64,000 nt of DNA from Haloarculaceae archaeon. Lineage in GTDB: Archaea; Halobacteriota; Halobacteria; Halobacteriales; Haloarculaceae. The notes below the pieces were generated by a model. The model was not told where the DNA came from. It worked only from the letters and a program-made list of their open reading frames with translations, and ran no database searches. Shown piece by piece: positions 6,025 through 34,794 of this stretch (positions are counted from its first letter, which is position 1; each line of letters opens with the position of its first letter). The position numbers were made by a program, and so were the translations under genes. The stretch lies in assembly GCA_036625595.1 (NCBI GenBank), contig JAZKTK010000002.1, forward strand, positions 3,552 through 67,551. The letters run 5' to 3'.

Positions 6025-7677
6025 ATGACAGTACACAATCACGGCGAGCGACCGTACGGCTGGGTCGGTGCACTGAGCGAACGGCGCGCACAGCTCTCTC
6101 CTGACCGCATCGGTCTCGTTGACGCCGACACCGGCGACGAGTACACCTACGCGGAACTCGACGAACGGGCGAATCGGACGGCACGACTGCTGCGCGAGCA
6201 CGGTGTCGAGAAGGGGGACCGTATCGCCGTCGTCTCGCGAAATCGGCCGGAGCTGGTCGACCTCTACTTCGCGACGGCCAAGGTCGGCGCGATTCTCGCG
6301 CCGCTCTCCTACCGGCTGGCACCCCGCGAGATTACGGAGATGCTCAACGACGTCGAGCCGGCGATGCTGTTCGTCGAGAAACCGTTCGAGGCCGACGTCG
6401 ACACCGCGCTCCGTCGGTTCGACCGGGAGTTCGCCGTCCCGCCGGTCATCGGTCTGCCCTCCGAAGAGCAGGGCGACTTCCGTGAACACAGCGCACCGGA
6501 GGGTCGCGAGTGGGAACGGCTGCCCGACGTGCTCCCCAACGAGGGGTCGTCCGTCGAGCGGGCGGACCTGGCGCTGTCGGACCCACATCTGTTCTTGCAC
6601 ACCGGCGGGTCGACGGGTCTCCCGAAGGAGGTCGTCCAGACCCACGGCGGCATCATGTGGAACGCGTTCAACACCATCATCTCGTGGGGGCTGCAGCCAC
6701 ACGACGTGACCCCGATGGTGTTCCCGATGTTCCACACCGGCGGGTGGAACGTCCTCACTATCCCCTTCTTTCACATGGGCGGAACGGTCCTCATCTCGCG
6801 GGACTTCGACCCACGCCAGGTGCTCGACCTCATCGAAAAGTACCAGTGTTCGGTACTGGTCGCCGTGCCTGCCGTCCTGCGCTTTATGGTCGAGGACGAG
6901 CAGTGGGAGAACACCGACCTCTCCAGTCTACGCTTTGCCAAAAGCGGCGGTGGTCCGTGCCGCGACTCCATCATCGAAGCGTGGAGCAATCGCGGCATCG
7001 ACCTCTCGCAGGGGTACGGCCTGACCGAGTGCGGCCCGAACAACTTCGCGATGCCCGACGACTTCGAGCGCGAGAAGACCGCGTCCATCGGAATGCCATC
7101 GCTGTACGTCGACGCTCGCATCGTCGATGAAGACGGCGAGGAACTCCCACCGGGTGAGGTCGGGGAACTCGAACTCGCCTCCCCACATTCGGGGGACCGC
7201 TACTGGAACAACGAGGAAGAAACAGAGGAAGTGTTTGGGGGCGGTTCCGCGAGCGAGGCGAGCGGAACGTCGGAAGCGGGGACCGCTTCCGGAAGCTGGG
7301 TGTCCACGGGCGACCTCGCTCGCGTCGACGACGACGGCTACTACCACATCGAGGGACGCAAGAAGAATCTCTTCGTCTCCGGTGGCGAGAACGTCTTCCC
7401 ACCGGAAGTCGAGGACGTCATCGCCGGCCACCCGAAAGTCGAGGACGTCATCGTCGTGCCAGTCCCCGACGAGAAGTGGGGCGAGGTCGGGAAGGCAGTC
7501 GTCGAGGGCGATGAAAGCCTGACGCTGGAAGAACTACAGGAGTATCTCGACGACCGGATTGCGGCGTTCAAGGTTCCGAAACACCTCGCGTTCGTCGACG
7601 AGATGCCGATGAGCGGGCCGTCGAAAATCGACCGGCAGGCACTCGAAGCGGAATACGGCGGCGATGCTCACAAGTAA
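6025..7677 (+). CDS. AMP-dependent acyl-CoA synthetase/ligase (fatty-acid-CoA ligase family)
   Basis: The AMP-binding motifs are LHTGGSTGLPKEV, GYGLTE, TGDLARVDDDGYYHIEGRKK and PSKIDR. I chose the ATG at 6025. The 37 codons upstream in the track ORF are Arg-rich and look non-coding. Confidence 0.85.
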   Translation: MTVHNHGERPYGWVGALSERRAQLSPDRIGLVDADTGDEYTYAELDERANRTARLLREHGVEKGDRIAVVSRNRPELVDLYFATAKVGAILAPLSYRLAPREITEMLNDVEPAMLFVEKPFEADVDTALRRFDREFAVPPVIGLPSEEQGDFREHSAPEGREWERLPDVLPNEGSSVERADLALSDPHLFLHTGGSTGLPKEVVQTHGGIMWNAFNTIISWGLQPHDVTPMVFPMFHTGGWNVLTIPFFHMGGTVLISRDFDPRQVLDLIEKYQCSVLVAVPAVLRFMVEDEQWENTDLSSLRFAKSGGGPCRDSIIEAWSNRGIDLSQGYGLTECGPNNFAMPDDFEREKTASIGMPSLYVDARIVDEDGEELPPGEVGELELASPHSGDRYWNNEEETEEVFGGGSASEASGTSEAGTASGSWVSTGDLARVDDDGYYHIEGRKKNLFVSGGENVFPPEVEDVIAGHPKVEDVIVVPVPDEKWGEVGKAVVEGDESLTLEELQEYLDDRIAAFKVPKHLAFVDEMPMSGPSKIDRQALEAEYGGDAHK

Positions 7678-7825
7678 TTAGCAGGCCAGCACCCAATATT
7701 CCAGTCGTTATATTTCCATTGCAATATTCGTACATCGGTTCGACTAATTTAAATACGGTTTCCATGCGTGAAGATATTCGGGAGGATAGGAAACTTAATT
7801 CGGCTACAAGAGAGAGTGGTTGGTA

Positions 7826-8851
7826 ATGACCAGCGTAGGTCTCACCGGCTATGGTCGGTATACGCCGGAAGAGGTGGTGACTGGGGAAGAGATTGCCAAC
7901 CGGAGTGGGATTCCGGAAGAAGTCGTCGTCGAGAAGATGGGGATGCGCGAAAAGCGCGTCTGTCCACCGGACGACGACCACGTAACAGATATGTCCATCG
8001 CGGCGGGCGAAGATGCCCTCGAGGATGCCGGCGTCGACGCCGACGAGTTGGACCTCGTGCTCTATCACGGCAGCGAGTACAAGGACTACGTCGTCTGGTC
8101 GGCTGCCGCGAACATCGCCGAGCGCATCGGTGCCGAGAACGCGTACGCGACCGAGAGTTACACGCTGTGTGCCGGCTGTCCCATCGCGATGCGGACGGTC
8201 CGCGCACAGTTGGTCGCCGACAGCGTCGACACAGCGCTGCTGGTGACGGCCTCCCGCGAGGAGGACCTGCTGGACTACGAGAACGAGAACTCCTCGTTCA
8301 TGTTCAACTTCGGCAGCGGCGCAGCGGCGTACGTAATGGAACGTGACCCAGCAGAAGAGCGCACACGCGCCTGGGTCCACGGGAGCGGTGCCATCACTGA
8401 CGGGTCCTTCTCAGAAGATGTCGTCATGCCCGCCGGTGGGTCGAAGAACCCACCGACACGGGAGACCGTCGAGCAGAACCGCCACACGCTCGACGTGCCC
8501 GACCCCGAGGGAATGAAAGAGCGCATCGCGCCCGTCTCGCTACCGAACTACCTCTCAGTGGCCGAGGAAGCACTGGACAAATCGGACTACGAACAGGACG
8601 ACGTAGATTTCGTCGCCGTCACGCACATGAAGCGGTCGTTCCACCAGACGTTGCTGGAGGAACTGGGTGTCGACCCCCAATCGGACGGCTACTACCTCGA
8701 CGAGTACGGTCACATGCAGAGTGTCGACCAGATTTTCGCGCTTGACGAGGGACTGGAGCGTGGGCGCGTCGAGGACGGTGACGTAGTGCTCTTTCTCGCG
8801 GCCGGGACCGGATACACCTGGTCTGCGACGGTGCTCGAGTGGCTCGGCTGA
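7826..8851 (+). CDS. Beta-ketoacyl synthase III (FabH)-like condensing enzyme
   Basis: The thiolase-fold pattern shows an active-site Cys in ESYTLCAGCP, a His in VAVTHMK, and GHMQS where FabH has GNTS. I prefer the ATG at 7826 to the TTG at 7820. Confidence 0.75.
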   Translation: MTSVGLTGYGRYTPEEVVTGEEIANRSGIPEEVVVEKMGMREKRVCPPDDDHVTDMSIAAGEDALEDAGVDADELDLVLYHGSEYKDYVVWSAAANIAERIGAENAYATESYTLCAGCPIAMRTVRAQLVADSVDTALLVTASREEDLLDYENENSSFMFNFGSGAAAYVMERDPAEERTRAWVHGSGAITDGSFSEDVVMPAGGSKNPPTRETVEQNRHTLDVPDPEGMKERIAPVSLPNYLSVAEEALDKSDYEQDDVDFVAVTHMKRSFHQTLLEELGVDPQSDGYYLDEYGHMQSVDQIFALDEGLERGRVEDGDVVLFLAAGTGYTWSATVLEWLG

Positions 8852-8931
8852 GCGTCACCGGCGTCCCAGACTGAGGCAACGCTAGCCGCCGATACGCATG
8901 CTTTTAGGGCCGGAACCGCTACCAACGGTCG

Positions 8932-9648
8932 ATGAGCCGACTACGCATCGCCCTGTTGAACGCGGCCCACGACGGCGCGGACACCCGCCGGAACTTCCGG
9001 CGCGAACTGGACGCAGACCTCGTGGAGTTTCACTGTCCTGAAGGTGAACTCCCCGAGACGTTCCAGTTCGACGCCTGTGTCCTCACGGGGTCGCGAGCCT
9101 CCGTCTACTGGGACAAGCCCTGGATTGGGGAGCTAAAGTCCTACGTGGGCGATGCCATCGACACCGGAATGCCGATGCTCGGCGTCTGTTACGGTCACCA
9201 GCTACTCGCGGACGTACTCGGCGGCAGCGTCGAGGACATGGGCGAGTACGAAATCGGCTATCGAACCGTCGAACACGACGGCGAGAACACGCTGCTCGCA
9301 GGCGTCGACGACCAGTTCACCGTCTTTACGACCCACTCCGACCGGGTGGCCGAGGCCCCGCCCGGAGCCGAGGTGTTCGCCCGCAACGAGTACGGCATCC
9401 ACGGCTTCCAGAAGGGCAACGTCTTCGCGGTGCAGTTCCACCCCGAGTACGACACGGCGACGGCCGAGGACGTGGCCTCCGGCAAGGACCTCCCCGAGGA
9501 GCGCATCCAGCAGGTTCTGGAGGGCATCAACGCAGCGAACTACGCTGCGGCCTGTGAAGCCAAGACGCTCTTCGACAACTTCACCCAGTTCGTTCGCGAG
9601 CGCGCACACGGCGGTCAGACCGGTACGGCGAGCGCTGCCGACGACTAA
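8932..9648 (+). CDS. Class I glutamine amidotransferase (GATase1) domain protein
   Basis: The nucleophile elbow is LGVCYGHQLL and the His-Glu pair sits in FHPEYD. The length (~240 aa) is typical. Confidence 0.8.
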   Translation: MSRLRIALLNAAHDGADTRRNFRRELDADLVEFHCPEGELPETFQFDACVLTGSRASVYWDKPWIGELKSYVGDAIDTGMPMLGVCYGHQLLADVLGGSVEDMGEYEIGYRTVEHDGENTLLAGVDDQFTVFTTHSDRVAEAPPGAEVFARNEYGIHGFQKGNVFAVQFHPEYDTATAEDVASGKDLPEERIQQVLEGINAANYAAACEAKTLFDNFTQFVRERAHGGQTGTASAADD

Positions 9649-22017: not shown

Positions 22018-23640
22018 ATGAAAAAGCCACTGCTGGCTACGGAGTTCCTCGACAGAGCACGGGAGAACTTCGGTGGCCACGAGGCACTCCTCACCGTCGA
22101 GGGCGACCGACTGACGTACGACGAACTCGGTGACCGGGTCGACCGCCTCTCGGCTGCGCTGCAGGACCGCGGCATCGAGAAGGGCGACCGCGTCGCTGTG
22201 CTGGACCCGAACACACACTACCACCTCGAAACAGCCTACGCCGCCATCCAGATTGGCGCAATTCACACGCCGCTGAACTACCGGCTCAAACCCGGCGAGA
22301 ACGAGTATATTATAAACGATGCCGGTATCGACGCCATCGTCTGTGACTACGATTTCGTCGACAACGTCGACCCGGTCCGGGACGCCGTCGACGTGGAGAC
22401 CTACATCTGTACCGACCCCGAGCAGGCCGACACCGACGAGGAGTGGGCCGACTACGAATCGGTCATCGACGACTATGGCCCCGGCGAGCACGAGCGCCCG
22501 GAGATGGCCGAAGACGAGATTATCACCATCAACTACACCTCGGGAACGACTGGCGACCCGAAAGGCGTGATGCGCACCCACCGCACGGAGACGATTCACG
22601 CGTATCTCACCGCCCACCAGAACTCGATTACGAGCGACGACGTCTACTACTGGACGCTCCCGATGTTCCACGTCAACGGGTGGGGACACATCTTCGCTAT
22701 CACGGGCGTGGGCGCTCGACACATCTGTGCCCGTGGGTTCGACCCCGAACGCACCTTCGAGAAGATTGCCGAGGAAGACGTCTCCTACATGTGCTGTGCG
22801 CCGACGGTAATGAACATGCTCATCGAACACTGGGAGGCGCACGACCCCCAGACCACCGGCGACGCCGACCTTCGAATCGCCTCCGGCGGTGCAGCACCAC
22901 CCGAGGCGACAATGCGCACGCTGGAGGACGATATCGGCTGGTATTTCAAGCACATGTACGGCTCGACGGAGACCGGCCCGCTCATCGTCACCTCCGACTA
23001 CAACCGACTGTTCGACCAGGACGACGACTCCCGATTCGAAATCAAGAACAGACAGGGCTTTGCGATGCTCGGGACCGAAATCGACGTGGTCGACGGGGAG
23101 GGCAACTCCGTCCCCACTGACGACGAGACGATTGGCGAAATTGTCGTCCGGGGGAACCAGATTATGGAGGGGTACTGGAACAATCCCGAGGAGACAGCAG
23201 AGGCCTTTTCGGCACGACGGGAGGGGTGGTTCCACACCGGCGACCTCGCGACGCTCAACGAGGACGGAATGTTGAAAATCAAAGACCGCAAGAAGGACAT
23301 CATCGTCTCCGGCGGGGAAAATATCTCCAGTCTCCAGCTAGAGGACTGTCTGTACAATCACCCGGCAGTCCGCGAGGTGGCGATTATTCCGGTCCCAAGC
23401 GCAGAGTGGGGCGAGACGCCAAAAGCCTACATCATCCCGAAGAACGGCGACCCCGAGAATCCGGGCGTGACTGCCGAGGAAATAACAGCCTACACCAAAG
23501 AACACCTCGCCGACTACAAGGCCGTCCGCGTGGTAGAATTTGTCGACCAGCTCCCCAAGACCTCGACCGGAAAGATTCAGAAGTACGAACTCAGGCAGAC
23601 GGAGTGGGACGACCACGACCAGATGGTCGGCGAAGGATAG
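22018..23640 (+). CDS. AMP-dependent acyl-CoA synthetase (medium/short-chain type)
   Basis: Motifs are YTSGTTGDPKGV, YGSTETGP, TGDLATLNEDGMLKIKDRKKD and KTSTGKIQK. Confidence 0.88.
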   Translation: MKKPLLATEFLDRARENFGGHEALLTVEGDRLTYDELGDRVDRLSAALQDRGIEKGDRVAVLDPNTHYHLETAYAAIQIGAIHTPLNYRLKPGENEYIINDAGIDAIVCDYDFVDNVDPVRDAVDVETYICTDPEQADTDEEWADYESVIDDYGPGEHERPEMAEDEIITINYTSGTTGDPKGVMRTHRTETIHAYLTAHQNSITSDDVYYWTLPMFHVNGWGHIFAITGVGARHICARGFDPERTFEKIAEEDVSYMCCAPTVMNMLIEHWEAHDPQTTGDADLRIASGGAAPPEATMRTLEDDIGWYFKHMYGSTETGPLIVTSDYNRLFDQDDDSRFEIKNRQGFAMLGTEIDVVDGEGNSVPTDDETIGEIVVRGNQIMEGYWNNPEETAEAFSARREGWFHTGDLATLNEDGMLKIKDRKKDIIVSGGENISSLQLEDCLYNHPAVREVAIIPVPSAEWGETPKAYIIPKNGDPENPGVTAEEITAYTKEHLADYKAVRVVEFVDQLPKTSTGKIQKYELRQTEWDDHDQMVGEG

Positions 23641-23702
23641 GCACGCTCGGCGTGGCAGCCGATGCACAGAAATATATCCGCGGGGGTGTATCCGTCCGAT
23701 GA

Positions 23703-25523
23703 ATGGCTGATTCCGAGCCCGAGTCAGAGACAGACCCCGAGGAGAGCGTCCGGCAGGCCGTCGAGCGGTCCAGAAGTGGCGCACCCGCGGCCGGTCGGGT
23801 CGTCCGTGACCGCTTCTCCGCTGACGAAGTCTTCCAGCGAATCGTCGCCGCCGCCGACGAAGAGATTACCGCCGGAAGCCGGGAACTGTTCTTCAGCGGT
23901 CTCGCCGCTGGCTTTGCAATCACGATTACGTTCCTGCTGTACATCTCCCTGACGGCGTCGACGGACGGCCATCCCGTTCTCTCCGCGATGCTGTACCCGC
24001 TCGGATTTATTTACATCATCATCGGTGGCTACCAGCTCTACACCGAAAACACACTCCCGCCGGTCGCGCTGACACTCGAACGCATCGCGTCGATACCGGC
24101 GCTCTTGCGCAACTGGGTGGTCGTCCTGGCCGGAAACTTTACCGGTGGCACGTTCGGTGCCATGGCACTCGCGTGGGGTGGTGTCCTCTCGACGGACGGG
24201 GCGTCGGCCGCAGCCGACATCGCCTCGAAGGGTATCGAAACCGGCTCGACGGTGTTGTTCGTCAAGGCTGCCTTCGCCGGACTCATCGTCGCGGGCGTTG
24301 TCTGGGTCAGCTTCGCCGCCAGAGACACCATTTCACGGCTCGTCGTCGTCTATCTCGCCTTTTTGTCGATTCCGCTCGGTGGTCTGTTCCACGTCGTGGT
24401 CTCGTACACCGAGATGGTGTATCTCGTCTTGCTGGGTGAGCTCTCGGTGATTGTCGGGATGACCGAGTTCGTCATCCCAGTGTTGCTCGGGAACACCGCT
24501 GGCGGGGTCGTGCTGGTAACGGTCGTCAACTACTTCCAGACGACAGAAGAACGGCTGGAATCGGCCCGGTTTGAGGGCGCGAACCGTCGCCTCTCGATGC
24601 AGGAGTGGGTCATGGGGAGCCGCGCCGGACGGTCGTACGTGCCTCTCATCGACACGGCAGAACCGGCCACACAATCCGAAAACGGCCCGTTCCGTATCGT
24701 CGTCCCGATTACGAATCCCCGGACGGAGTCACGACTCGTCGAATTCGCCTGTACGCTGGCAAGCGACAGAGACGAGGCTATCGTCGACGTGGTCCACATC
24801 GTCCAGATGCCCCGTCAGTCCTCACAGGGATACGGCGTCAGACAGAGCAGGCGCATCATCGACGAATCGGAAGAGCTGATGGAGAATATGCGAGGTATCG
24901 CCAACAACTACGATGTCAGCTGTGAAACCTCGACAGTGCTGTCACACCGCTCGTTCGAGGAGATATTCACTGTGTCAAAACGCAAGGGCGCCGACCTCGT
25001 GGTGATGGAGTGGGGCGAAGACGGCGTGTGGAAGGCCGCGCGCGCGGACCGCCCCCTCGACGACCTCACACGACAGCTCCCCAGTGACTTTCTCGTCCTC
25101 AAGGACCGGGACCTCGACACCTCGCGGGTCCTCCTGCCGGTCGTGGGCGACCACTCCGACGACATGAGCGCCGACGTCGCACGGGCGCTCCGCGACGTCA
25201 AGGGGGCAGCGGTGAGCCTCCTGCACGTCGTCGACGGGCCCGAGAAGCGCGAACAGGGCGAAGAGTTCCTCGCCAACTGGGCGGCCGACCACGGACTCGA
25301 GGACGCCATCCGACTCGTCGATGACACCGGCAACGTCGAGGCAGCAATCGAACAGGAAGCCCAAGAACACACGCTGGTGCTGCTCGGTGCCTCCGAGCGA
25401 GGGCTGTTATCACGACTCGCCCGTGATGCACTCTATCTTGACGTTATCGATGACCTGGAAAGCTCCGTCGTGCTCGCGGAACCGGCGACAAAGCGAGGAC
25501 TCCTCAGCCGACTGTTCGGCTAA
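23703..25523 (+). CDS. Formate/nitrite transporter (FNT) family channel fused to two C-terminal universal-stress-protein domains
   Basis: The N-terminal ~290 aa are polytopic with FNT-like segments (FSGLAAGFAITITF, LYPLGFIYIIIGGYQLYTENT, LRNWVVVLAGNFTGG). The C-terminal ~270 aa contain two USP-like halves (RIVVPITNP...ADLVVMEWG; RVLLPVVGD...HTLVLLGASERG). Confidence 0.75.
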   Translation: MADSEPESETDPEESVRQAVERSRSGAPAAGRVVRDRFSADEVFQRIVAAADEEITAGSRELFFSGLAAGFAITITFLLYISLTASTDGHPVLSAMLYPLGFIYIIIGGYQLYTENTLPPVALTLERIASIPALLRNWVVVLAGNFTGGTFGAMALAWGGVLSTDGASAAADIASKGIETGSTVLFVKAAFAGLIVAGVVWVSFAARDTISRLVVVYLAFLSIPLGGLFHVVVSYTEMVYLVLLGELSVIVGMTEFVIPVLLGNTAGGVVLVTVVNYFQTTEERLESARFEGANRRLSMQEWVMGSRAGRSYVPLIDTAEPATQSENGPFRIVVPITNPRTESRLVEFACTLASDRDEAIVDVVHIVQMPRQSSQGYGVRQSRRIIDESEELMENMRGIANNYDVSCETSTVLSHRSFEEIFTVSKRKGADLVVMEWGEDGVWKAARADRPLDDLTRQLPSDFLVLKDRDLDTSRVLLPVVGDHSDDMSADVARALRDVKGAAVSLLHVVDGPEKREQGEEFLANWAADHGLEDAIRLVDDTGNVEAAIEQEAQEHTLVLLGASERGLLSRLARDALYLDVIDDLESSVVLAEPATKRGLLSRLFG

Positions 25524-25652
25524 GCGGTGACACTCGGCGACTTGCCATCCAAACGCCGACGTTTCGAGTGAGTGTACAAAAAGGCCGCCACGAACGTAGC
25601 TTCCTGAGAACGCCCCTGCCCACTAACGTGTTGATGACGGTTACCTGGGTGT

Positions 25653-26081
25653 ATGTACCGCGTACTGTTGCCGGTAGACGAGAACGAACAACGCGCCGAA
25701 CAGGCAGCCCAGAACGTTAGAAATCTCCCGAGAGACGCAGACGACATCGAAGTCGTCGTGCTGAACGTCGAAGCGCCGTACAGTGTCGGCGACGGCGGTG
25801 GGCGGGTTAGTTCCGAAGAGTTCTTCGACGAGACGGACTATCCGGAGAGCGTCGAAACAGTTCTCGACCTGCTAGAGGACGCAGGTATCGCGACGGAGAA
25901 GCGTCGCGTCCACGGCAGCCCGAGCGAAGAGATTCTGGCAGTTGCCGACGAGGTCGACGCCGACACGATTGCGATGAGCGGTCGCAAACGAAGTCCCTCT
26001 GGGAAAGTCCTGTTCGGGAGCGTCACGCAGTCGGTGTTACTGGACGCGAACCGTCCAGTACTGGTGTCGGCGCTGGGATGA
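25653..26081 (+). CDS. Universal stress protein
   Basis: The N-terminus is MYRVLLPVDENE and the USP ATP-binding motif is IAMSGRKRSPSGKVLFGSVTQSVLLDANRPVLV. Confidence 0.85.
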   Translation: MYRVLLPVDENEQRAEQAAQNVRNLPRDADDIEVVVLNVEAPYSVGDGGGRVSSEEFFDETDYPESVETVLDLLEDAGIATEKRRVHGSPSEEILAVADEVDADTIAMSGRKRSPSGKVLFGSVTQSVLLDANRPVLVSALG

Positions 26082-26082
26082 G

Positions 26083-26499
26083 CTAGTCTTTTTCCAGAAA
26101 GTCCGGTCGTTCGACGGCTTCGTTCTTGCCCGGTTCCGGGCGGTCGAGCGCATCCATCTTGTCGATAGCGTCGGGCAACCCGTCGCGGCCGCCGGTCGGA
26201 ACCTCGTCCTCGTCGACGGTGACCGTCTCGCCCTCGACGAGTTCCGCCCAGACGGGGGCGTCTGCGCCACGGGCAGTGTCCGCGTCGAACTCGCGGGCCT
26301 CGTTTTTCCCCTCGTCGAAGGCCAGGTCGACCACACTCTTGTTGTAGGAGGTGTCCATCTCCGCACGAACGCGTTCGAGTTCCTCCGGATGGTACTCCCC
26401 GAGAGACGTGGCGACACCGAGTGCGTACGCGCGGTCGATGGCCTCGTCCTTGTCGAGTGCATCCCAGTCGGTTCCGTAGGCGCGTTCGTACTTGCTCAT
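26083..26499 (-). CDS. Acidic conserved hypothetical protein, last gene of the minus-strand KaiC-like operon
   Basis: The ATG at 26497-26499 (MSKYERAYG...) lies 1 nt after the stop of the upstream ATPase gene. The product is 138 aa, acidic, with no TM segment and no recognised motif. Confidence 0.65.
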   Translation of the reverse strand: MSKYERAYGTDWDALDKDEAIDRAYALGVATSLGEYHPEELERVRAEMDTSYNKSVVDLAFDEGKNEAREFDADTARGADAPVWAELVEGETVTVDEDEVPTGGRDGLPDAIDKMDALDRPEPGKNEAVERPDFLEKD

Positions 26500-26500
26500 G

Positions 26501-27187
26501 TTATCCCTGGACCTTCCGGTCACCGTGAACGCGCAATCCCTGATCGGAAAAACTTATCTCCCGGATATCACAGTCGATTGCAGTCCCGCGCATTTTGATG
26601 ACCTGTATCCCCCGAGTCATTCCGGATGAATCGAGGAAATTGTGGAAGAAAATGACCCCGTGTGCGAGGTAGTGTTCGTCCGAGTAGGAGGTCGGGTCGG
26701 TCATCTCCGAGATGAGCAGTGTGGTCGCGTCAGTCTGTTTCAGCGCGGAGAGAAAGCCCGTAATTTCGTCGCTCATGTCCGAGAAGAAGTGCTGGAGGAG
26801 CATCGTAGAGTCGATGACGACCCGGTCGACGTCGTTCGATTCGATGAACGCAACCAGGCGATTCGTGAGGCCACCGTCGGTCCCGAACTGAGTTATCGTC
26901 CGTTTGCCGGCCTCGGTAACGAGATTCAGGAACTGTACGTTCTCGGACTGGACGGCCCGGTCGAAGCCAAAGTCGTAGCCCGACATATCCTGGATCAGTT
27001 CCTCTTTGGTCTCGTGCATCGTCACGTAGAGGCAGTCCGCACCCTCTTTTGCACCCTGTGTGATAAACTGTGAGCAGAAGGTCGTCTTTCCGCTTCCTGG
27101 CGGTCCGCTCACGACGTAGAGTCGGTCGTCCAGAAGTCCCCCCTCGACGAGTTCGTCGAATCCAGGGACGCCACTCGAAAGTCGCAT
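26501..27187 (-). CDS. Single-domain KaiC/RecA-superfamily ATPase (COG0467-like, RAD55/KaiC family)
   Basis: The N-terminus SSGVPGFDELVEGGLLDDRLYVVSGPPGSGKTTFCSQF carries Walker A, and RVVIDS is Walker B-like. I prefer the ATG at 27187 to the one at 27274. Confidence 0.8.
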   Translation of the reverse strand: MRLSSGVPGFDELVEGGLLDDRLYVVSGPPGSGKTTFCSQFITQGAKEGADCLYVTMHETKEELIQDMSGYDFGFDRAVQSENVQFLNLVTEAGKRTITQFGTDGGLTNRLVAFIESNDVDRVVIDSTMLLQHFFSDMSDEITGFLSALKQTDATTLLISEMTDPTSYSDEHYLAHGVIFFHNFLDSSGMTRGIQVIKMRGTAIDCDIREISFSDQGLRVHGDRKVQG

Positions 27188-27233
27188 GCGAGGGTCAACG
27201 CCGTATCGAGATATAGATGTTTGCTCTGTGTTC

Positions 27234-27998
27234 TCAGTGTTGATAATCCACCACGCCAGTCGCGAACGATTCACGGACGGCGAGCAGTTTGCGGGTCGCC
27301 CGCTCGTCGAATCTGAGGGGACGCCGCCACCACGGCCCCTTTCCGGAGTCAGCCGAGAGCTCGGTCACGAGTTCGTTCGCGTCGACGCCGCCAGACGGGT
27401 TCGAGAGTGGTACTGCACGGTCGTACAGCGCTGATTCAGACGGGTCACCAGTCAGGAGGACGCGAGCATCAGTCGTCTCGTCGTGGCGGGAATCACCGTT
27501 CCGAGACATCGCGTGCGTCTCGCGGCGAACGTGGGCGTTGTTCGCAAACGGTGCCCGCCCGTCGGCGTCGAGCGCCGCGTACTCTTCGCCGGTGAGTGGG
27601 TCCTGTGCCAGTCGGAACTGACCGATACAGAACGCACCCCACTCCGGCGGGAGCCACTCCGCCGACTCACGAACTGAAAGCGTCGCATAAAAGATGACGT
27701 AATCGCCCGCCGTCAGTTCCGAGAGCGGGCCGGCCTTGATACCGTGGTCGTCGCCGTAGGTGTAGCGCTCACAGCAGGGATACTCGGGAAACTCCGGGTC
27801 GAGGTGGACGGGCTGGTCGGAGAGTGCGTCCGGAATCGTCGTCGTCAGGTGGTCCGCGAGGTCGCCGTACGTCGGCGGGTCGACGGCGGGTTCGGTTTCG
27901 GGAATCGGGATGTACTCGAAGGAGCCGTCGGGCCAGACGGGGCCACGAAATCCCGGTTCATTCGTGTTGGCACCGACGTTGATAGCGAGAGCTCGCAT
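27234..27998 (-). CDS. Uncharacterised cytosolic protein, possibly Nmad3-like (nucleotide-modification-associated domain); tentative
   Basis: 254-aa ORF beginning MRALAINVGANTNEPGFRGPVWPDGSFEYIPIPE. The composition is protein-like throughout. The family suggestion comes from memory of the N-terminal pattern only. Confidence 0.6.
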   Translation of the reverse strand: MRALAINVGANTNEPGFRGPVWPDGSFEYIPIPETEPAVDPPTYGDLADHLTTTIPDALSDQPVHLDPEFPEYPCCERYTYGDDHGIKAGPLSELTAGDYVIFYATLSVRESAEWLPPEWGAFCIGQFRLAQDPLTGEEYAALDADGRAPFANNAHVRRETHAMSRNGDSRHDETTDARVLLTGDPSESALYDRAVPLSNPSGGVDANELVTELSADSGKGPWWRRPLRFDERATRKLLAVRESFATGVVDYQH

Positions 27999-28036
27999 TG
28001 CGTACGGGTCGGTAGCCAACGAGCAAAAGAACTCCG

Positions 28037-28306
28037 TCAGCGCAGCGGCTCGGCACACTCGCGACAGTAGCTGAACATGCCGTCACGGTCGTTGAGCGCT
28101 CCGCATTGCTGGCAGACGACGGCGTCATCAGGGCCACGGTCGGCGTCAATATCAGTCGCGGCAGCCGACCCTTCCAGTCGCTTGTACCCCGGTTCCCGCG
28201 ACTCCCCGTCGTGCGTGGACTCACCCCGCTGGAAGTACCGGTACAGCACCAGCTGCAGCAGCGCGAACCCGATGAGGTACGCCGCGAGCCAGGCCCAAGC
28301 CTCCAT
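28037..28306 (-). CDS. Small membrane protein with a C-terminal zinc ribbon
   Basis: The N-terminal TM helix is MEAWAWLAAYLIGFALLQLVLY, followed by an acidic linker and CQQCG...CRECAEPL. I chose the ATG at 28306. Confidence 0.6.
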   Translation of the reverse strand: MEAWAWLAAYLIGFALLQLVLYRYFQRGESTHDGESREPGYKRLEGSAAATDIDADRGPDDAVVCQQCGALNDRDGMFSYCRECAEPLR

Positions 28307-28535
28307 GTTCCATGCTAGGCGTTCACAGTACTTGGATGTTCGGCTCGAAGTCACGGCGTGGTTCTTCTTCGCTGAGTTGCCGCAGGTCCGAGGTGATTTT
28401 GAACACTTTGGCAGTCTGTTGCTCGTTGGCGGTTGCGACCTCGTTGATTTCGTTGCTGCGGTCGGTCGCGTCGTCTACATATTCGACACCAGGAGAGTTT
28501 CTCACGACCAATACTCCATTCTGGGAGCGCGCCTG

Positions 28536-28548
28536 ATATTTATATAAG
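28536..28548. promoter_or_regulatory. Near-palindromic TATA-like element in the divergent KaiC intergenic region
   Basis: ATATTTATATAAG lies ~21 nt upstream of the kaiC ATG at 28569. It also lies ~25 nt upstream of a candidate minus-strand start at 28511. Confidence 0.4.
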
Positions 28549-28568
28549 CACCAGCCTGAGAGGTGGGT

Positions 28569-30038
28569 ATGGAGACTTCGGCCGTGCGGATTAGTAGCGG
28601 CATCACTGGGCTTGACGAACTGTTGCGCGGCGGGTTCGTGTCCGGTCGAATGTATCTGGTCTGTGGTGAACCGGGGACCGGCAAGACGCTGCTCGGGATG
28701 CACTTTCTCGAGGCCGGCATGGACAACGACGAGACAGTACTGTGTATTCACGGCGAGGAGTCACGAGACGAAATCCTTCTGAATGGAGCACAGGTCGGTA
28801 TCGACATTCAGGACGCGCAGTTTCTGGACCTGGGACCGAACTCCGAGTTCTTCACCGAGGACCGAAACTACGACCTGGTCGAGCCGGGCGCAGTCGAACG
28901 TGACCGATACACAGCGGACATCCACGACGCCATCAGGGATATCAATCCCGACCGGGTCGTCCTCGACCCAATCACGCAACTGCGATACATCGAAGCAAAC
29001 GAACACCAGTTCCGAAAGCGAATTCTCTCGTTTATGCGGTTTCTCAAGGAACGGGATACGACTGTCGTCGGGACCGCAACGCTGTCCAGCGACACCGGGT
29101 ACCAGACTGAGATGCGCTCGTTGAGCGACGGGGTCATCCAACTGTCCCACACGGACCGGGGTCGACGGCTCAAGGTCGCAAAGCACCGTGGGTTCGGACA
29201 GCAAGACGGCAGCCACGGTCTCGCAATCAGAGACAGCGGTGTCGAGGTGTTCCCGTCACTGATTCCGGAACAGCTCGACAGCACCCTGGAGACGTCCCGT
29301 ATCAGGTCCGGAATCGATAACCTCGACGACCTGCTCGGCGGCGGTCTCGAGAAAGGGACGGTGACGTTCATCAGCGGTCCGACAGGTGTCGGGAAGACAA
29401 CGACGGCGACACAGTTTCTCGCGGAAGCTGCGAACCAGGGGACGGACTCGATTGCCTACCTGTTCGAGGAGGGAACGGACACCTTCACACACCGGTCCGA
29501 ATCAATGGGCATCCCACTCTCGGACCTGCGCGAGCAGGGGGCGGTGTCGCTCAGAGCGGTCGAACCGCTCGCGCAGTCGGCCGAAGAGTTCGCACAGACG
29601 GTCAAGCGCGAAATCGACCGGACCGGTTCGGAAGTCGTCCTCATCGACGGTATCGACGGGTACAAGATGTCGATTCAGGGGACAGATGCGACGCTCGTCG
29701 AGAAGATACATGCGCTGACACGGCACCTCAAGAACCGCGACGTGACGGTGATAATAACTGACGAAGTGTCACAGATAACCGGCATGCGGACGGCAACGAG
29801 TACGAACCTCAGCTACATCGCCGACAACATCCTCTTTTTGAGTTATATCGAGACTGAGGGAACACTCGAGAAAATCATCGGGGTCCTGAAAAAGCGGGCA
29901 GGCGGCTTCGAGAACACACTCAGAGAGTTCGACCTCGACGGCGGCATCCACGTCGGCGACCCGCTGACCAACGCATCGGGAATTTTGCAGGGGACGCCAC
30001 AGATGAACCCGGGTCGCGGGAATCAGACCGATGACTGA
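28569..30038 (+). CDS. Two-domain KaiC-family ATPase (circadian clock protein KaiC homolog)
   Basis: There are two RecA-like halves, each with Walker A (GEPGTGKT and GPTGVGKT). The KaiC-style N-terminal signatures are ISSGITGLDELLRGGF and IRSGIDNLDDLLGGGL. An alternative GTG start lies at 28563. Confidence 0.88.
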   Translation: METSAVRISSGITGLDELLRGGFVSGRMYLVCGEPGTGKTLLGMHFLEAGMDNDETVLCIHGEESRDEILLNGAQVGIDIQDAQFLDLGPNSEFFTEDRNYDLVEPGAVERDRYTADIHDAIRDINPDRVVLDPITQLRYIEANEHQFRKRILSFMRFLKERDTTVVGTATLSSDTGYQTEMRSLSDGVIQLSHTDRGRRLKVAKHRGFGQQDGSHGLAIRDSGVEVFPSLIPEQLDSTLETSRIRSGIDNLDDLLGGGLEKGTVTFISGPTGVGKTTTATQFLAEAANQGTDSIAYLFEEGTDTFTHRSESMGIPLSDLREQGAVSLRAVEPLAQSAEEFAQTVKREIDRTGSEVVLIDGIDGYKMSIQGTDATLVEKIHALTRHLKNRDVTVIITDEVSQITGMRTATSTNLSYIADNILFLSYIETEGTLEKIIGVLKKRAGGFENTLREFDLDGGIHVGDPLTNASGILQGTPQMNPGRGNQTDD

Positions 30039-31560
30039 GGACGACGACACCACTGGTCCGGGCGCTGTCGCGCAACCGAGCGACGAGCGGTCGACAGTGC
30101 AACTACTCGTCGGTGACGAGGGCAATCGGTCGGCGCTCCGGGCAATGCTCGACGATCGGTACGTCGTCGGCACCAACCAGTCCGTCACCGATGCCGACCT
30201 CTACCTCGTCGAGGACCGACTGTTCACCGAGCACGTCGACGACCTTCGCGCGGTCGTCGAGCGGGAGGCTCCTGTGTTCTGTCCGGTCGTTCTTCTTCGT
30301 CGAGATTCGAGCAACTCGTCGGTATCACTCCGGACGCTCGGCAAGCGCGAGACGCCGGTGGTACTCGACGATGTCATCGACGCCCCCGTCAGCCAGGCCG
30401 TGCTCGTGCGACGGCTGGAGACGCTGCTCATCCGGCGCAGACAGGCACAGCAACTCCAGACGCAGGTGTCGACACTCGAAAAGCGCGAGCGCGAACTCCG
30501 AAGTTTCAAACAGGCAGTCGAACACTCTGGCCACTCGATTACGATTACAAAGACAGACGGAACAATCCAGTTTGTCAACAGTGCCTTCGAGGAGACGACG
30601 GGGTACAGTGCCGAGGAGGCAATCGGAAACACCCCCCGAATCCTCAATTCAGGCGAGCACGACAAGGCGTTTTACGCAGACCTCTGGAAGACAATTCTTG
30701 CCGGAGACATCTGGGACGGCAATGTGATAAACGAGCGCAAAAACGGCGAGCGATACGTCGTCGAACAGACGATTGCACCGATACTCGACAGTGGCGAAAT
30801 AGAGGGGTTTATTTCGGTCAATGCAGAGATAACCGAGCGTATCCGGCGCGAGAAGAAACTCCAACACCAGCGACAGGAACTCGACCTTCTGCGACAGATT
30901 CTCACTCGCGTTCTCAGACACAACATCCGCAACGACCTCAACGTCGTTATGGGACACGCAGAGCGCCTCGCCAACGAACGAGAATCAGATGAGGGGTTGG
31001 CCAAGATTGTCCAGAAGGCCGAATCCATCGCAGAGACCAGCGAGACTGCACGAGAAATCGCCGCGCTCATCGAACGGAGCGAAACCCCGTCACAACAGGA
31101 TATCGTCCCGCTCGTGGAGCGAGTCGCTGCCGACGTGCGTGATCGATTCCCCGAAACGACAGTCAGGGTCGACCTGCCAGCGGAGTGTGCTGCGTACGCC
31201 AGCGAGGAACTCGAGCGCGCCCTCACTGAACTCGTCGAGAACGCCGCCGAGTACAACGACGCCAACGACCCATGGGTCGATATCACGCTCGAACGGAACG
31301 AGACAATTCGACTCGCAATCGAAGACAATGGGCCGGGAATCCCGGAGAGTGAACTCGTGCCGCTCAGACAGGACGAAGAGACTTCGCTCGAACACGGAAG
31401 CAGTGTCGACCTGTGGCTCGTCAACTGGATTATCGAACAGTGCGACGGCACGATTCACTTCCACAGGCGCGATAACGGAACGCGTGTCGAACTCGAACTC
31501 CCGAAGAAAAAGGTCGTCGACGGAGCAGTTCTCACCACGACCGACAACGACAGCTACTGA
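30031..31560 (+). CDS. Signal-transduction histidine kinase: receiver-like (probably pseudo-receiver) + PAS + HisKA/HATPase
   Basis: The start overlaps the kaiC stop by 8 nt (ATGACTGA). The PAS segment is FKQAVEHSGHSITITKTDGTIQFVNSAFEETTGYSAEEAIG. The H-box is LRHNIRNDLNVVMGH and the ATPase motifs are ELVENAAEYN and IEDNGPGIP. Confidence 0.85.
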   Translation: MTEDDDTTGPGAVAQPSDERSTVQLLVGDEGNRSALRAMLDDRYVVGTNQSVTDADLYLVEDRLFTEHVDDLRAVVEREAPVFCPVVLLRRDSSNSSVSLRTLGKRETPVVLDDVIDAPVSQAVLVRRLETLLIRRRQAQQLQTQVSTLEKRERELRSFKQAVEHSGHSITITKTDGTIQFVNSAFEETTGYSAEEAIGNTPRILNSGEHDKAFYADLWKTILAGDIWDGNVINERKNGERYVVEQTIAPILDSGEIEGFISVNAEITERIRREKKLQHQRQELDLLRQILTRVLRHNIRNDLNVVMGHAERLANERESDEGLAKIVQKAESIAETSETAREIAALIERSETPSQQDIVPLVERVAADVRDRFPETTVRVDLPAECAAYASEELERALTELVENAAEYNDANDPWVDITLERNETIRLAIEDNGPGIPESELVPLRQDEETSLEHGSSVDLWLVNWIIEQCDGTIHFHRRDNGTRVELELPKKKVVDGAVLTTTDNDSY

Positions 31561-31599
31561 AGCGCTATCGCAGCACTTCGACGTTCCCGTAGCGACAGT

Positions 31600-32508
31600 T
31601 CAGGCGTCAGGTGGGGTCAAATCACGCTGGAACTCGTCGAAGACGTTCAAATTGTCGGGTATCTCGGTGGGGATGCGACGCTCCTCGCGTCTGTCGACAT
31701 TGTCGTCTTCCAGCGGGTCGGCGACCGACTCCCAGCCGTCTTTGATCGCGATACTCGTTGCGGGAGAGCCTGCGGCGATGTGGTGGGCCGGAATGTCTTT
31801 CGAGAGTGCGGACTTGGCGGCCAGAACCGAATTCCGGCCGACCTTGACGCCGGCGCGGACCATCGAATCGTAGGTGACGCGTGCGTCGTCCTCGATGATG
31901 GTGTGGTAGTTGGTCACGACAGTCTGGTCGACGACATCGTGGTCGTGCGTGTAAATCGCGGCGTTGTCGGAGATAGAGACGCGGTCGCCGATACTGAGTT
32001 TCCCGCGGTCGTCAAGGTGAACATCGTCGTGGACGACGACGTTGTCACCGACGGTGATGTTGTGGCCGTAGGTGAAGGTAATACCCTTGAAAAATCGGCA
32101 GTTGTCACCGCACTCTTCGAAGAGGTGTTTGGCGAGCATCCGGCGAAACCGGAGCGCGAAGGCGATGTTGTCGGCCATCGGAGTGGCGTCGAACTGCCGC
32201 CAGAGCCACTGGAGGTACTTCGACTGCTGGAAGTCCGCGTCCATCGTCTCGACTTCGGCGTAGTACTCGCTTTCGAGGGTCGCGTTGCAGGGGTTGTACC
32301 CCTGCAGTCGGACCCGTTCAGCGGGCGTCACGTCGCCGCCGGCCTGCCAGCGCTCGTAGGCATCGCGGTCACCCATCAGGTCCACGAGTGTCTCCTTGAC
32401 GACCTCGCAGGTGTCCTCGTCGCTGGCGAGACGGGTGTCGACCTCGTCGATGAACTCCTGTACCCCTTCCTCGGCAGCGGGTGGCAACGACACGTGTCGC
32501 TTCGTCAT
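31600..32508 (-). CDS. Left-handed beta-helix (hexapeptide-repeat) acyl/acetyltransferase
   Basis: Hexapeptide repeats are ITVGDNVVVHDDVHLDDRGKLSIGDRVSISDNAAIYTHDH. I chose the ATG at 32508 (MTKRHV). Confidence 0.75.
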   Translation of the reverse strand: MTKRHVSLPPAAEEGVQEFIDEVDTRLASDEDTCEVVKETLVDLMGDRDAYERWQAGGDVTPAERVRLQGYNPCNATLESEYYAEVETMDADFQQSKYLQWLWRQFDATPMADNIAFALRFRRMLAKHLFEECGDNCRFFKGITFTYGHNITVGDNVVVHDDVHLDDRGKLSIGDRVSISDNAAIYTHDHDVVDQTVVTNYHTIIEDDARVTYDSMVRAGVKVGRNSVLAAKSALSKDIPAHHIAAGSPATSIAIKDGWESVADPLEDDNVDRREERRIPTEIPDNLNVFDEFQRDLTPPDA

Positions 32509-32646
32509 GTTCCGCCATTGCCCGGCAGCACGCATAGGGGTTTCCGTTACACGTTCGTCACCCGGTATCGTCTCCGTTACTGCGGCACTATTCGAACCGG
32601 GTCGAACCCGTGTGGATTTATCATCGCCGCACCGTTGTCGGTGTGC

Positions 32647-33744: not shown

Positions 33745-34794
33745 TTACTCTGCCTTCAACCCCTCGCCCTTGACACGCATGACAGCCTCGCCGTCGGCGA
33801 GGTTCGGCGCGTCCACGAGGCGGACGATGCGTTTGTCGGCCTTTGACTTGCGGAGATAGATACGGAACGTGGAGGTGTGGCCGAGGATGTTGCCACCGAT
33901 GGGCTGGGTCGGGTCGCCGAAGAAGGAGTCGGGGTTGGCAGCGACCTGGTTTGTGACGACGACAGCGGTGTTGTTCAGGTCGCCGACGCGCATCAGGTCG
34001 TGGAGGTGTTTGTTGAGTTTCTGCTGGCGGTCCGCGAGTTCGCCACGGCCGACGTACTCCGCACGGAAGTGTGCGGTCAGCGAGTCGACACAGAGCAGTC
34101 GAACAGGGAACTCCCCGTCCTGGCTCTCGCCGGCGATTTCCTGTGCTTTCTCCGCGAGGAGAATCTGGTGATTGGAGTTGAACGCCTTTGCGACGTGAAT
34201 CTTGTCGAGGAAGGCTTCCAGCAGGTCTTCGAGCAGGCCATCATCGTCAGCGTCGGCATCGGCTTCCTCTTCGACGACTTCGTGGGTGACCATCGCCGCT
34301 TCGATGGCGTCGTCCGGCAGGCCACGGAGCATGTCGTCGATACGCTCCGGGCGGAAGGTGTCCTCGCTGTCGATGAAGATACAGCTGCCTTCGAGACCGC
34401 CGTACTCGGACGGAAGCTGGACGTTGACCGCGAGCTGGTGGGTGACCTGCGACTTGCCGGCCCCGAACTCGCCGTACACTTCGGTGATAGACTGGGTCTC
34501 GACGCCCCCGCCGAGCAGTTCGTCGACCTCGTCGACGCCCCACGTCAGCTTGCCGATCTGTTCGCGTCGCTCCAGGACTGTCGAGCCAGATTCGAAGCCA
34601 CCGATATCAGCGGCGTCACGAGCGGCGTTGATGATATCTGCAGCGCTGGACTCCCCGATGTCGGCCGTATTCGAGAGTTCGCCGGGACTGGCGACGGCGA
34701 TACCCTGGTAGTTGTCGAATCCGTTGTCTTTGAGCTTCTCTGCTGTCGCCGGCCCGACGCCGGGGAGGTCTTCGAGGTCTTCACCTGTGGACAT
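33745..34794 (-). CDS. radA: DNA repair and recombination protein RadA
   Basis: The N-terminal HhH is [15 protein letters not shown], Walker A is GEFGAGKSQ, and the rest follows the RadA/Rad51 core pattern. Length is 349 aa. Confidence 0.93.

Follow-up and report, generated by a model that had tools for sequence, protein, structure and literature searches.

In cyanobacteria, the output of KaiC passes through the histidine kinases SasA and CikA, the second of which has a pseudo-receiver domain. Among the haloarchaea, the sole two-domain KaiC of Haloferax volcanii, CirC, adjoins a gene annotated as fixL, oxygen-sensor protein (Maniscalco et al. 2014, PMC3941300). Haloarchaea also have several single-domain KaiC paralogues with diverse roles, such as CirA in motility and cell shape (PMC13464002, PMC10983859). 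Homologues of both kinds are found close together in a 64,000-nt stretch of a Haloarculaceae metagenome-assembled genome (MAG; assembly GCA_036625595.1, contig JAZKTK010000002.1), hereafter the window, whose closest cultured relative is Salinibaculum salinum. Six genes are concerned, designated A to F (Table 1): A (DUF8057), B (KaiC1), C (Nmad3) and D (a zinc-ribbon protein) on the minus strand, and E (KaiC2) and F (a histidine kinase) on the plus strand. A preliminary description of the window had taken all six as a single KaiC-centred system. The comparison with related genomes did not support such a system; it resolved three separable modules, E-F, D-C and B-A, and the region is probably a mosaic of independent modules. 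The inventory of that description was sound: all six open reading frames (ORFs) were found, the domain identities, including a tentative Nmad3 call, hold by Pfam and NCBIfam profile search, and direct reading of the sequence confirmed the 1-nt spacing between the stop of B and the start of A as well as the overlap of E and F by 8 nt (ATGACTGA). None of the genes is a chance ORF, because each has conserved homologues in many genomes.

The first line of evidence for the mosaic came from a survey of Nmad3 loci, in which one genome per species was searched and, of 219 matches, the best 80 loci were analysed with at most 10 kb of flank each. Locus counts out of 81 were obtained by tblastn with the window proteins together with all-against-all clustering of ORFs. 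Among the 80 loci from other genomes, only those of S. salinum (L001) and S. rarum (L005) contain E and F, in both cases between gene G, a hexapeptide-repeat acyltransferase gene, and D, and in the opposite orientation. Neither gene is present in the closest other relatives, namely S. litoreum (L004) and two further MAGs that come next (L002 and L003); in L002 and L003 the gene directly after G is D, and in L004 an unrelated transporter-like ORF stands there. Blastn against these three loci placed the limits of the additional segment at approximately positions 28346-31599 of the window. Because E-F is absent from close relatives, and because the gap between G and D is highly variable (51 nt to 5.3 kb across loci), the pair is best explained as an insertion into this spacer. 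The physical and probable regulatory link that had been proposed between E-F and a second ATPase module is, by this distribution, not conserved.

The second line of evidence concerns the spacer between D and E, which had been regarded as a shared divergent control region. In L001 and L005, the interval between E and D contains two genes on the strand of D, one for a hemerythrin (PF01814) and one for a 377-aa transducer of the methyl-accepting chemotaxis protein (MCP) type (PF00015), located in L001 at 7574-8014 and 8506-9639, respectively. Blastn aligned window positions 26001-28477 with L001 11956-9509 and window positions 28482-32600 with L001 7491-3374. The 2,017 bp missing between the two alignments include the hemerythrin gene in full and the MCP gene up to its nucleotide 1,003; no more than the final 43 codons of the MCP gene are left in the window, corresponding to residues 334-376 of 377 in the S. 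salinum protein. The conclusion from this finding is that the supposed control region is the scar of a deletion; because the deletion created it, the apparent divergent promoter region would be a recent accident of the lineage. Adjacency of E and D is accordingly found in this MAG lineage only, S. salinum and S. rarum having 2.3 kb of other genes between them. The spacer had also been described as AT-rich and about 260 nt long; it measures 262 nt, and its G+C content of 53%, compared with 61% in the whole window, makes it no more than mildly AT-rich. In its E-proximal part, on the plus strand, the good archaeal TATA box TTTATATAA suggests a promoter of the kaiC-kinase operon from which a leaderless transcript would start, and the region around this box aligns with the sequence upstream of E in S. 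salinum. In its D-proximal part, on the other strand, the promoter-like element GCCGAACATCCAAGTA has a fixed position upstream of D and is conserved across genera.

The third line of evidence is that the minus-strand genes would not be transcribed as one unit. When the 70 nt upstream of B were aligned across the 46 loci carrying B, a TATA-like box was found at a fixed offset in all 46, and a palindrome of the form TT(A/C/G)TCA-N4-TGA(G/A)AA was also present in 46/46, 58-60 nt from the ATG and with a 4-nt spacer in 45 of them. In the window, the palindrome overlaps the last codons (D, Y, Q, H) and the stop of Nmad3. Since the TATA-like box and the palindrome upstream of it occur at fixed offsets, B-A probably has its own promoter and gives rise to a separate, leaderless transcript. 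The four minus-strand genes had been described as a tightly packed operon; they do lie close together on the same strand, but a single operon is improbable given this promoter and the separate loss of sub-blocks in related genomes. The spacing of the genes across loci is as follows: the gap from B to A has a median of -4 or +1 nt (45 loci), because of which B and A can be considered translationally coupled, whereas the gap from D to C has a median of 36 nt and that from C to B is approximately 50-170 nt. At least two transcription units, zinc-ribbon/Nmad3 and KaiC1/DUF8057, are probably present. Scans for tRNA genes and Rfam families gave no match in the region, and a scan for sigma-70 promoters and terminators, with models that are not applicable to archaea, returned nothing.

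Table 1. Genes and sequence elements of the KaiC region, in window coordinates.
Feature	Position	Strand	Remarks
Gene A, DUF8057 (PF26244) protein	26083-26499	-	138 aa
Gene B, KaiC1, single-domain KaiC-like ATPase	26501-27187	-	228 aa
Gene C, stand-alone Nmad3 protein	27234-27998	-	254 aa
Gene D, membrane-anchored zinc-ribbon protein (DUF7577)	28037-28306	-	89 aa
Gene E, two-domain KaiC homologue (CirC-like; KaiC2)	28569-30038	+	489 aa
Gene F, histidine kinase with receiver-like N-domain	30031-31560	+	509 aa
Gene G, hexapeptide-repeat acyltransferase	31600-32535	-	311 aa; by Pfam and NCBIfam; outside the cluster of the preliminary description
TATA-like box CTATAT	27211-27216	-	-29 to -24 from the ATG of B; preceded by AAAC
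Palindrome TTATCA-ACAC-TGAGAA	27231-27246		family TTNTCA-N4-TGANAA; 59 nt upstream of the ATG of B
Promoter-like element GCCGAACATCCAAGTA	28329-28344	-	-38 to -23 from the ATG of D
MCP transducer 3'-end remnant, pseudogene fragment	28365-28481	-	tblastn, 81% identity over 43 aa
Deletion junction	28478-28481		2,017 bp missing relative to S. salinum (L001 7492-9508)
TATA box TTTATATAA	28539-28547	+	about 26 nt upstream of the ATG of E; read from sequence

The palindrome may be bound by a dimeric transcription factor. A DNA site bound by a protein is favoured over an RNA hairpin because the variable half-site position changes without covariation; the hairpin reading was ruled out by this lack of covariation and by the absence of a T-run after the palindrome. 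A relaxed version of the pattern gave 56 matches in the 1.34 Mb of collected loci, compared with 3.5 expected, and these were distributed as 44 upstream of B, nine upstream of D at the same distance and three elsewhere, one of the last falling where Nmad3 ends in L010, which has no B-A. Within the window, the palindrome precedes B only and is absent from the spacer between E and D. A second match in the window (2915-2932), with a 6-nt spacer and located inside a coding region, was judged to be due to chance.

The claim that the KaiC-kinase pair is a self-contained unit was borne out by its distribution outside the region. Homologues of E are numerous (1723 at E<=1e-30) and spread over haloarchaeal families, and a metagenome scan with E recovered a single locus, L081. 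Five homologues with 44-65% identity to E were sampled, from the metagenome contig L081 and from Halobiforma, Halobacterium, Halorientalis and Halobellus, and in 5/5 a kinase gene overlaps the stop of kaiC by 4 or 8 nt. No gene for Nmad3, DUF7577 or DUF8057 was found near E homologues in these five lineages. Judged from these sequences, E-F forms a unit of its own that is widespread in haloarchaea and owes its presence here to an insertion. The E protein contains two KaiC stretches (Pfam PF06745, E 1e-66) and was aligned over its full length to KaiC structures (residues 7-478). Its motifs match those of KaiC in the first half (GEPGTGKT / GEES / VVLD) and in the second (GPTGVGKT / FEEG / VLID); Walker A, Walker B and the catalytic Glu-Glu pair are intact in both halves, and the protein looks catalytically competent. 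Residues equivalent to Ser431 and Thr426 are present, Tyr occupies the position of Thr432, and the protein ends in a short C-terminal tail. E scored below the cut-offs of the NCBIfam circadian KaiC equivalogs PRK09302 and TIGR02655 (273.2 versus 408 and 172.7 versus 546 bits).

The partner kinase F contains a PAS domain (E 4.4e-14), a HATPase_c domain (E 2.9e-16) and a weak HisKA match (E 6e-4, below the cut-off), and an H-box, RVLRHNIRNDL, is present. The best matches of the PAS domain in NCBIfam and the Protein Data Bank (PDB) were NifL, MmoS and Aer, which are flavin-binding redox sensors. Its motif GNTPRILNSG is without the flavin-binding Cys of the light-oxygen-voltage (LOV) motif GRNCRFLQ, which places the domain outside the LOV subtype, and it has no haem-PAS signature. 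The N-domain, of about 115 aa (residues ~20-135 of F), is common to F and the five sampled partner kinases, and the sensor part that accompanies it varies among these kinases from none to one NifL-like PAS, a true LOV or many PAS domains. The true LOV motif, GRNCRFLQGE, is carried by the kinase beside the 44%-identical KaiC of L081 (7421-10450), and because of it some members of the KaiC-kinase family may sense blue light. No Pfam family matched the F N-domain. The position equivalent to Asp57 is kept in it and those of Thr87 and Lys109 are replaced (Lys by Ala). The pseudo-receiver that the preliminary description had placed at the N-terminus of F is plausible and compatible with these residues, but the profile match behind it is weak (E 0.022) and leaves it unproven.

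Likened through its published description, the cirC/fixL locus of H. volcanii has the same composition as E-F, namely a two-domain KaiC with Walker and catalytic Glu motifs in both halves, beside a kinase of the PAS/oxygen-sensor type, with no KaiA or KaiB. E-F differs in being an accessory island and in the PAS domain of F, which is NifL/MmoS-like and bears neither a haem-PAS nor a LOV signature. The resemblance to the SasA and CikA systems lies in the combination of a hexameric KaiC-type ATPase with a kinase whose non-catalytic N-domain could dock on KaiC. Unlike cyanobacterial KaiC, E is sub-threshold for the circadian models, has Tyr in place of Thr432 and a short tail, and is accompanied by no KaiA or KaiB gene found in the window. 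The best tblastn match of KaiB, searched with an approximate query within the 64-kb window and not in the rest of the genome, had an E of 1.1, and no CheY-like gene was detected in the window either. No relation of the N-domain of F to KaiB-like or CikA domains could be detected, and no rhythmicity is implied.

The KaiC1 protein, B, consists of a single KaiC domain (PF06745, E 2.3e-41) with intact Walker A (GPPGSGKT) and Walker B motifs, and it scored below every NCBIfam equivalog cut-off. Its best relatives in the PDB are KaiC CI domains, and no other protein of the cassette is as conserved as B, which has 78-99% identity across Haloarculaceae genera. The B gene has a G+C content of 56%, compared with 64-66% for its neighbours. 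Similarly to B, CirA of H. volcanii (HVO_1212) is a single-domain KaiC-type P-loop ATPase of ~230-250 aa with an intact Walker A; compared by description, the two differ in context, cirA lying within the archaellum gene cluster and B beside Nmad3. The A protein found no match in the local Pfam copy, from which the model is absent. All 120 listed homologues, at most 94% identical, were pre-annotated as PF26244, and the same is true of all 281 homologue clusters, of which the named ones belong to Haloarculaceae or to unclassified Halobacteriales. In the AlphaFold2 (AF2) model of A, residues 1-70 have a mean predicted local distance difference test score (pLDDT) of 86-98 by block and the tail falls below 60; the protein consists of a confident helical N-domain (residues 1-76) followed by a disordered acidic tail with conserved PTGG and PDFL motifs. 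Foldseek searches with the AF2 model of A gave no meaningful fold match. On plasmids, tblastn detected no relative of A, and the matches of B were limited to KaiC/GvpD paralogues of ~30% identity. In the searches made here the B-A pair was found only in Haloarculaceae lineages, where B is always followed by DUF8057. A literature search returned no papers on DUF8057 or DUF7577 and nothing relevant on Nmad3. The residual novelty is modest, and it consists of the Haloarculaceae-restricted KaiC1/DUF8057 pair together with its strictly positioned palindromic operator.

The protein encoded by C belongs to the Nmad3 family (PF18754; E 4.6e-46, 157.9 bits versus a cut-off of 27, profile positions 1-245 of 247), with homologues in 1227 clusters by a word-indexed search and in 653 representative clusters by an exhaustive one. 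A sequence-profile search of the PDB gave no match. The AF2 model (pLDDT 80) was compared by Foldseek with the PDB and viral libraries, and the top matches were all PUA-like folds of the EVE/YTH/ASCH type. These modified-base readers include the N-domain of McrB from Thermococcus gammatolerans, THYN1 and PH1033, from which Nmad3 differs in being larger (~240 aa) and in having no sequence-level relation; what is seen is a weak resemblance and not membership. The closest fused relatives of C carry Nmad2 or aGPT-Pplase3/ADDT domains, which belong to enzymes of DNA thymidine hypermodification. From the fold model and these fusions, it is reasonable to suppose that C binds modified nucleotides or nucleic acid, and the preliminary hint at a nucleic-acid-directed function is consistent with the same evidence, but for the Nmad3 gene only. 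In contrast to the Nmad3 hypermodification loci, C is stand-alone, chromosomal and vertically inherited, and it has no adjacent base-modifying enzyme of those families. Relatives of C were found neither in phage genomes by tblastn nor in a scan of viral contigs. Against the anti-phage defence models of PADLOC-DB 2.0, the matches of B and E (mad8, Mko, Nhi) were confined to short P-loop stretches, and A, C, D and F had none. The D protein has an N-terminal hydrophobic, transmembrane helix and a C-terminal DUF7577 zinc ribbon (PF24463, E 1.5e-11, 44.1 bits versus 28) with two CxxC pairs, CQQC...CREC.

Other observations were made on Nmad3 genes. The plasmid pHOS300 of Halorientalis sp. IM1011 (L084, 5182-9928) encodes a 430-aa Nmad3 fusion, a 45% identical paralogue of C, in the neighbourhood of genes for an AAA+ ATPase, a QueC-like protein and a fusion of PfkB kinase with nucleoside 2-deoxyribosyltransferase; this locus is a candidate island for nucleotide or DNA modification in a haloarchaeon. 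A Cupriavidus plasmid has an Nmad3 copy adjoining a restriction endonuclease gene. The C protein of the window contains a 14-aa insertion, THAMSRNGDSRHDE (window ~27480-27530, residues ~160-175), which has low confidence in the AF2 model and is absent from 14/14 aligned homologues, including the closest aligned one, that of S. salinum (P0002). An apparent N-terminal fusion to Nmad3 (P0362) was discarded as a mis-called, high-GC shadow ORF.

Conservation of the minus-strand genes was followed across the survey. Gene G lies near Nmad3 in 58/81 loci, and D lies upstream of Nmad3 in at least 45/81. G is taken to be the ancestral upstream neighbour of D and C, on the same strand. Genes B and A are found as a pair, in 44 of the 75 loci for which sufficient downstream DNA was available. 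Counted over all the loci, B-A is retained in 45/81, compared with 32-36/81 for the flanking genes for PHP, DUF5789, CPBP protease and aldo-keto reductase proteins. Because these housekeeping genes are kept almost as often, the co-occurrence of B-A with Nmad3 is not above family-level synteny. Losses, moreover, affected different parts of the block. Nmad3 is kept, often with D and G, in 29 loci without B-A, and B-A is missing though the flanking genes are intact in L008, L021, L009, L010, L011 and L019. Conversely, locus L086 has G, D, B and A and is missing Nmad3, and Haloarcula sensu stricto is without gene D. As far as these neighbourhoods tell, D-C and B-A are separable in evolution, each having been lost independently in relatives. 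Taken together, the neighbourhood comparison revealed that E-F is not conserved with the rest, whereas among D, C, B and A non-conservation is only partial.

Several points weigh against the mosaic and have to be set beside these findings. Of the 75 loci whose downstream DNA extends far enough, 44 have D-C-B-A co-linear on a single strand. In nine Haloarcula-type loci by strict match, and as variants in L039 and L043, the palindrome stands upstream of D at the same distance as upstream of B. The direction of the 2-kb event was assigned by parsimony from the retained MCP fragment. The N-domain of F was aligned by hhalign with a CheY/Spo0F/PhoB profile collinearly over 103 columns, and the match is weak (E 0.022, probability 2%). 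The Foldseek scores of C are also weak (best E 6.6e-3, TM 0.3-0.5, ~10% identity). Finally, the mechanisms of all the modules are inferred throughout.

Of the alternatives, the one that survives best, and which we consider somewhat unlikely, is that the minus-strand genes are unrelated neighbours held together by vertical synteny within Haloarculaceae, KaiC1-DUF8057 being another Cir-like pair. The independent loss of sub-blocks and the similar synteny of the flanking housekeeping genes agree with it, as do the own promoter of B-A and the diversity of roles among haloarchaeal single-domain KaiC paralogues (PMC13464002, PMC10983859). Against it stand the operator common to the D and B promoters in one clade, the overlap of the operator with the Nmad3 stop codon, and an architecture that is kept fixed across genera. 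Of all the findings, this common operator speaks most strongly for a possible co-regulation of D-C and B-A in one clade or more.

Unlikely, and more so, is a reading in which G-D-C-B-A forms one nucleic-acid-directed chromosomal system for repair, modification surveillance or defence, in which Nmad3 would read a modified base, D would localise Nmad3 at the membrane and KaiC1, an ATPase of the RecA superfamily, with a DUF8057 adaptor would act on the bound nucleic acid or signal from it. In its favour are the common strand and order in 44/75 loci across Salinibaculum, Haloarcula, Halorientalis and Halovenus, the same operator before D and B in ~9-11 Haloarcula-type loci, and the presence of RadA 4-5 kb upstream in many loci. 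The Nmad3 gene itself contributes the PUA-like fold matches of its model, the fusion of its relatives to Nmad2 or aGPT-Pplase3/ADDT, and a plasmid paralogue located by AAA+ ATPase, QueC-like and kinase/deoxyribosyltransferase genes. Against such a system, its sub-blocks are lost independently, the flanking housekeeping genes are syntenic almost as often (32-36/81 versus 45/81), no defence model was matched beyond the P-loop, and nothing related was found in phages or viral contigs (Nmad3) or in plasmids (A and B). In addition, chromosomal Nmad3 occurs without an adjacent modifying enzyme, with the exception of a sugar-type acetyltransferase. Equally doubtful is a further proposal, according to which KaiC1-DUF8057 would be an undescribed, Haloarculaceae-specific KaiC regulatory circuit, with the operator centred ~51 nt upstream of the leaderless start, united in one regulon with a membrane-tethered, PUA-like reader of modified nucleotides, and with DUF8057 or an unlinked factor binding the operator. 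The original model, one KaiC-centred system made of all six genes and co-regulated from a shared divergent promoter, is very improbable: the genes are adjacent, include two KaiC paralogues and flank a divergent 262-nt spacer with a TATA box for E, but that adjacency is limited to this MAG lineage and, interrupted by 2.3 kb, to two Salinibaculum species, the spacer is a deletion scar with an MCP gene fragment, the sampled E-F homologues elsewhere are never near Nmad3 or DUF8057, and the operator before B is absent from the E/D spacer.

The mosaic, then, would have been assembled and would work as follows. In the Salinibaculum lineage, E-F would have arrived in a 5.3-kb sensory island together with the hemerythrin and MCP transducer genes, and this island would have been inserted into the spacer between G and D. 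A later deletion of 2,017 bp in this MAG would have eliminated the hemerythrin gene together with the greater part of the MCP gene, producing the apparent divergent promoter. In the E-F module, the state of E, nucleotide-bound or autophosphorylated, could be read by the receiver-like N-domain of F, to which the NifL-like PAS domain might add a redox or oxygen input, and F might phosphorylate a response regulator encoded elsewhere. D-C would be a chromosomal pair conserved beside G in Haloarculaceae and related haloarchaeal lineages, in which Nmad3 may act as a PUA-like protein that binds modified nucleotides or nucleic acid, with D possibly tethering it to the membrane. B-A, in turn, may consist of a KaiC-type regulatory ATPase and an adaptor protein, with its own TATA box and palindromic operator. 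In some Haloarcula-type genomes, where the same operator precedes D, D-C and B-A may share a regulator.

Window positions 22018-26081, between the DUF8057 gene and the DUF5789/PHP genes, contain genes for an acyl-CoA synthetase, a fusion of formate/nitrite transporter and Usp, and a Usp protein. In Haloarcula the DUF5789/PHP genes directly follow DUF8057, and this segment is accordingly a second lineage-specific insertion in the neighbourhood. A few kb from the cassette, on its other side, lie RadA (33745-34794) and a homologue of PspA-associated protein B (PF22742; 34927-35466), which are syntenic with the cassette in Haloarcula and Salinibaculum.

Had the preliminary reading been true, the region would have represented a composite KaiC system of a new type, in which timing or sensing is tied to the modification of nucleic acids, and the findings presented here indicate that it does not. 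The kaiC-kinase pair is of a kind noted in the literature and never biochemically characterised, and the conserved receiver-like N-domain of its kinase provides a concrete handle on how archaeal KaiC proteins signal to two-component systems. The stand-alone Nmad3 of the cassette is an entry point to what Nmad3 binds. In conclusion, KaiC1-DUF8057, with its positioned operator, offers a tractable entry to the role of the single-domain KaiC paralogues of archaea.

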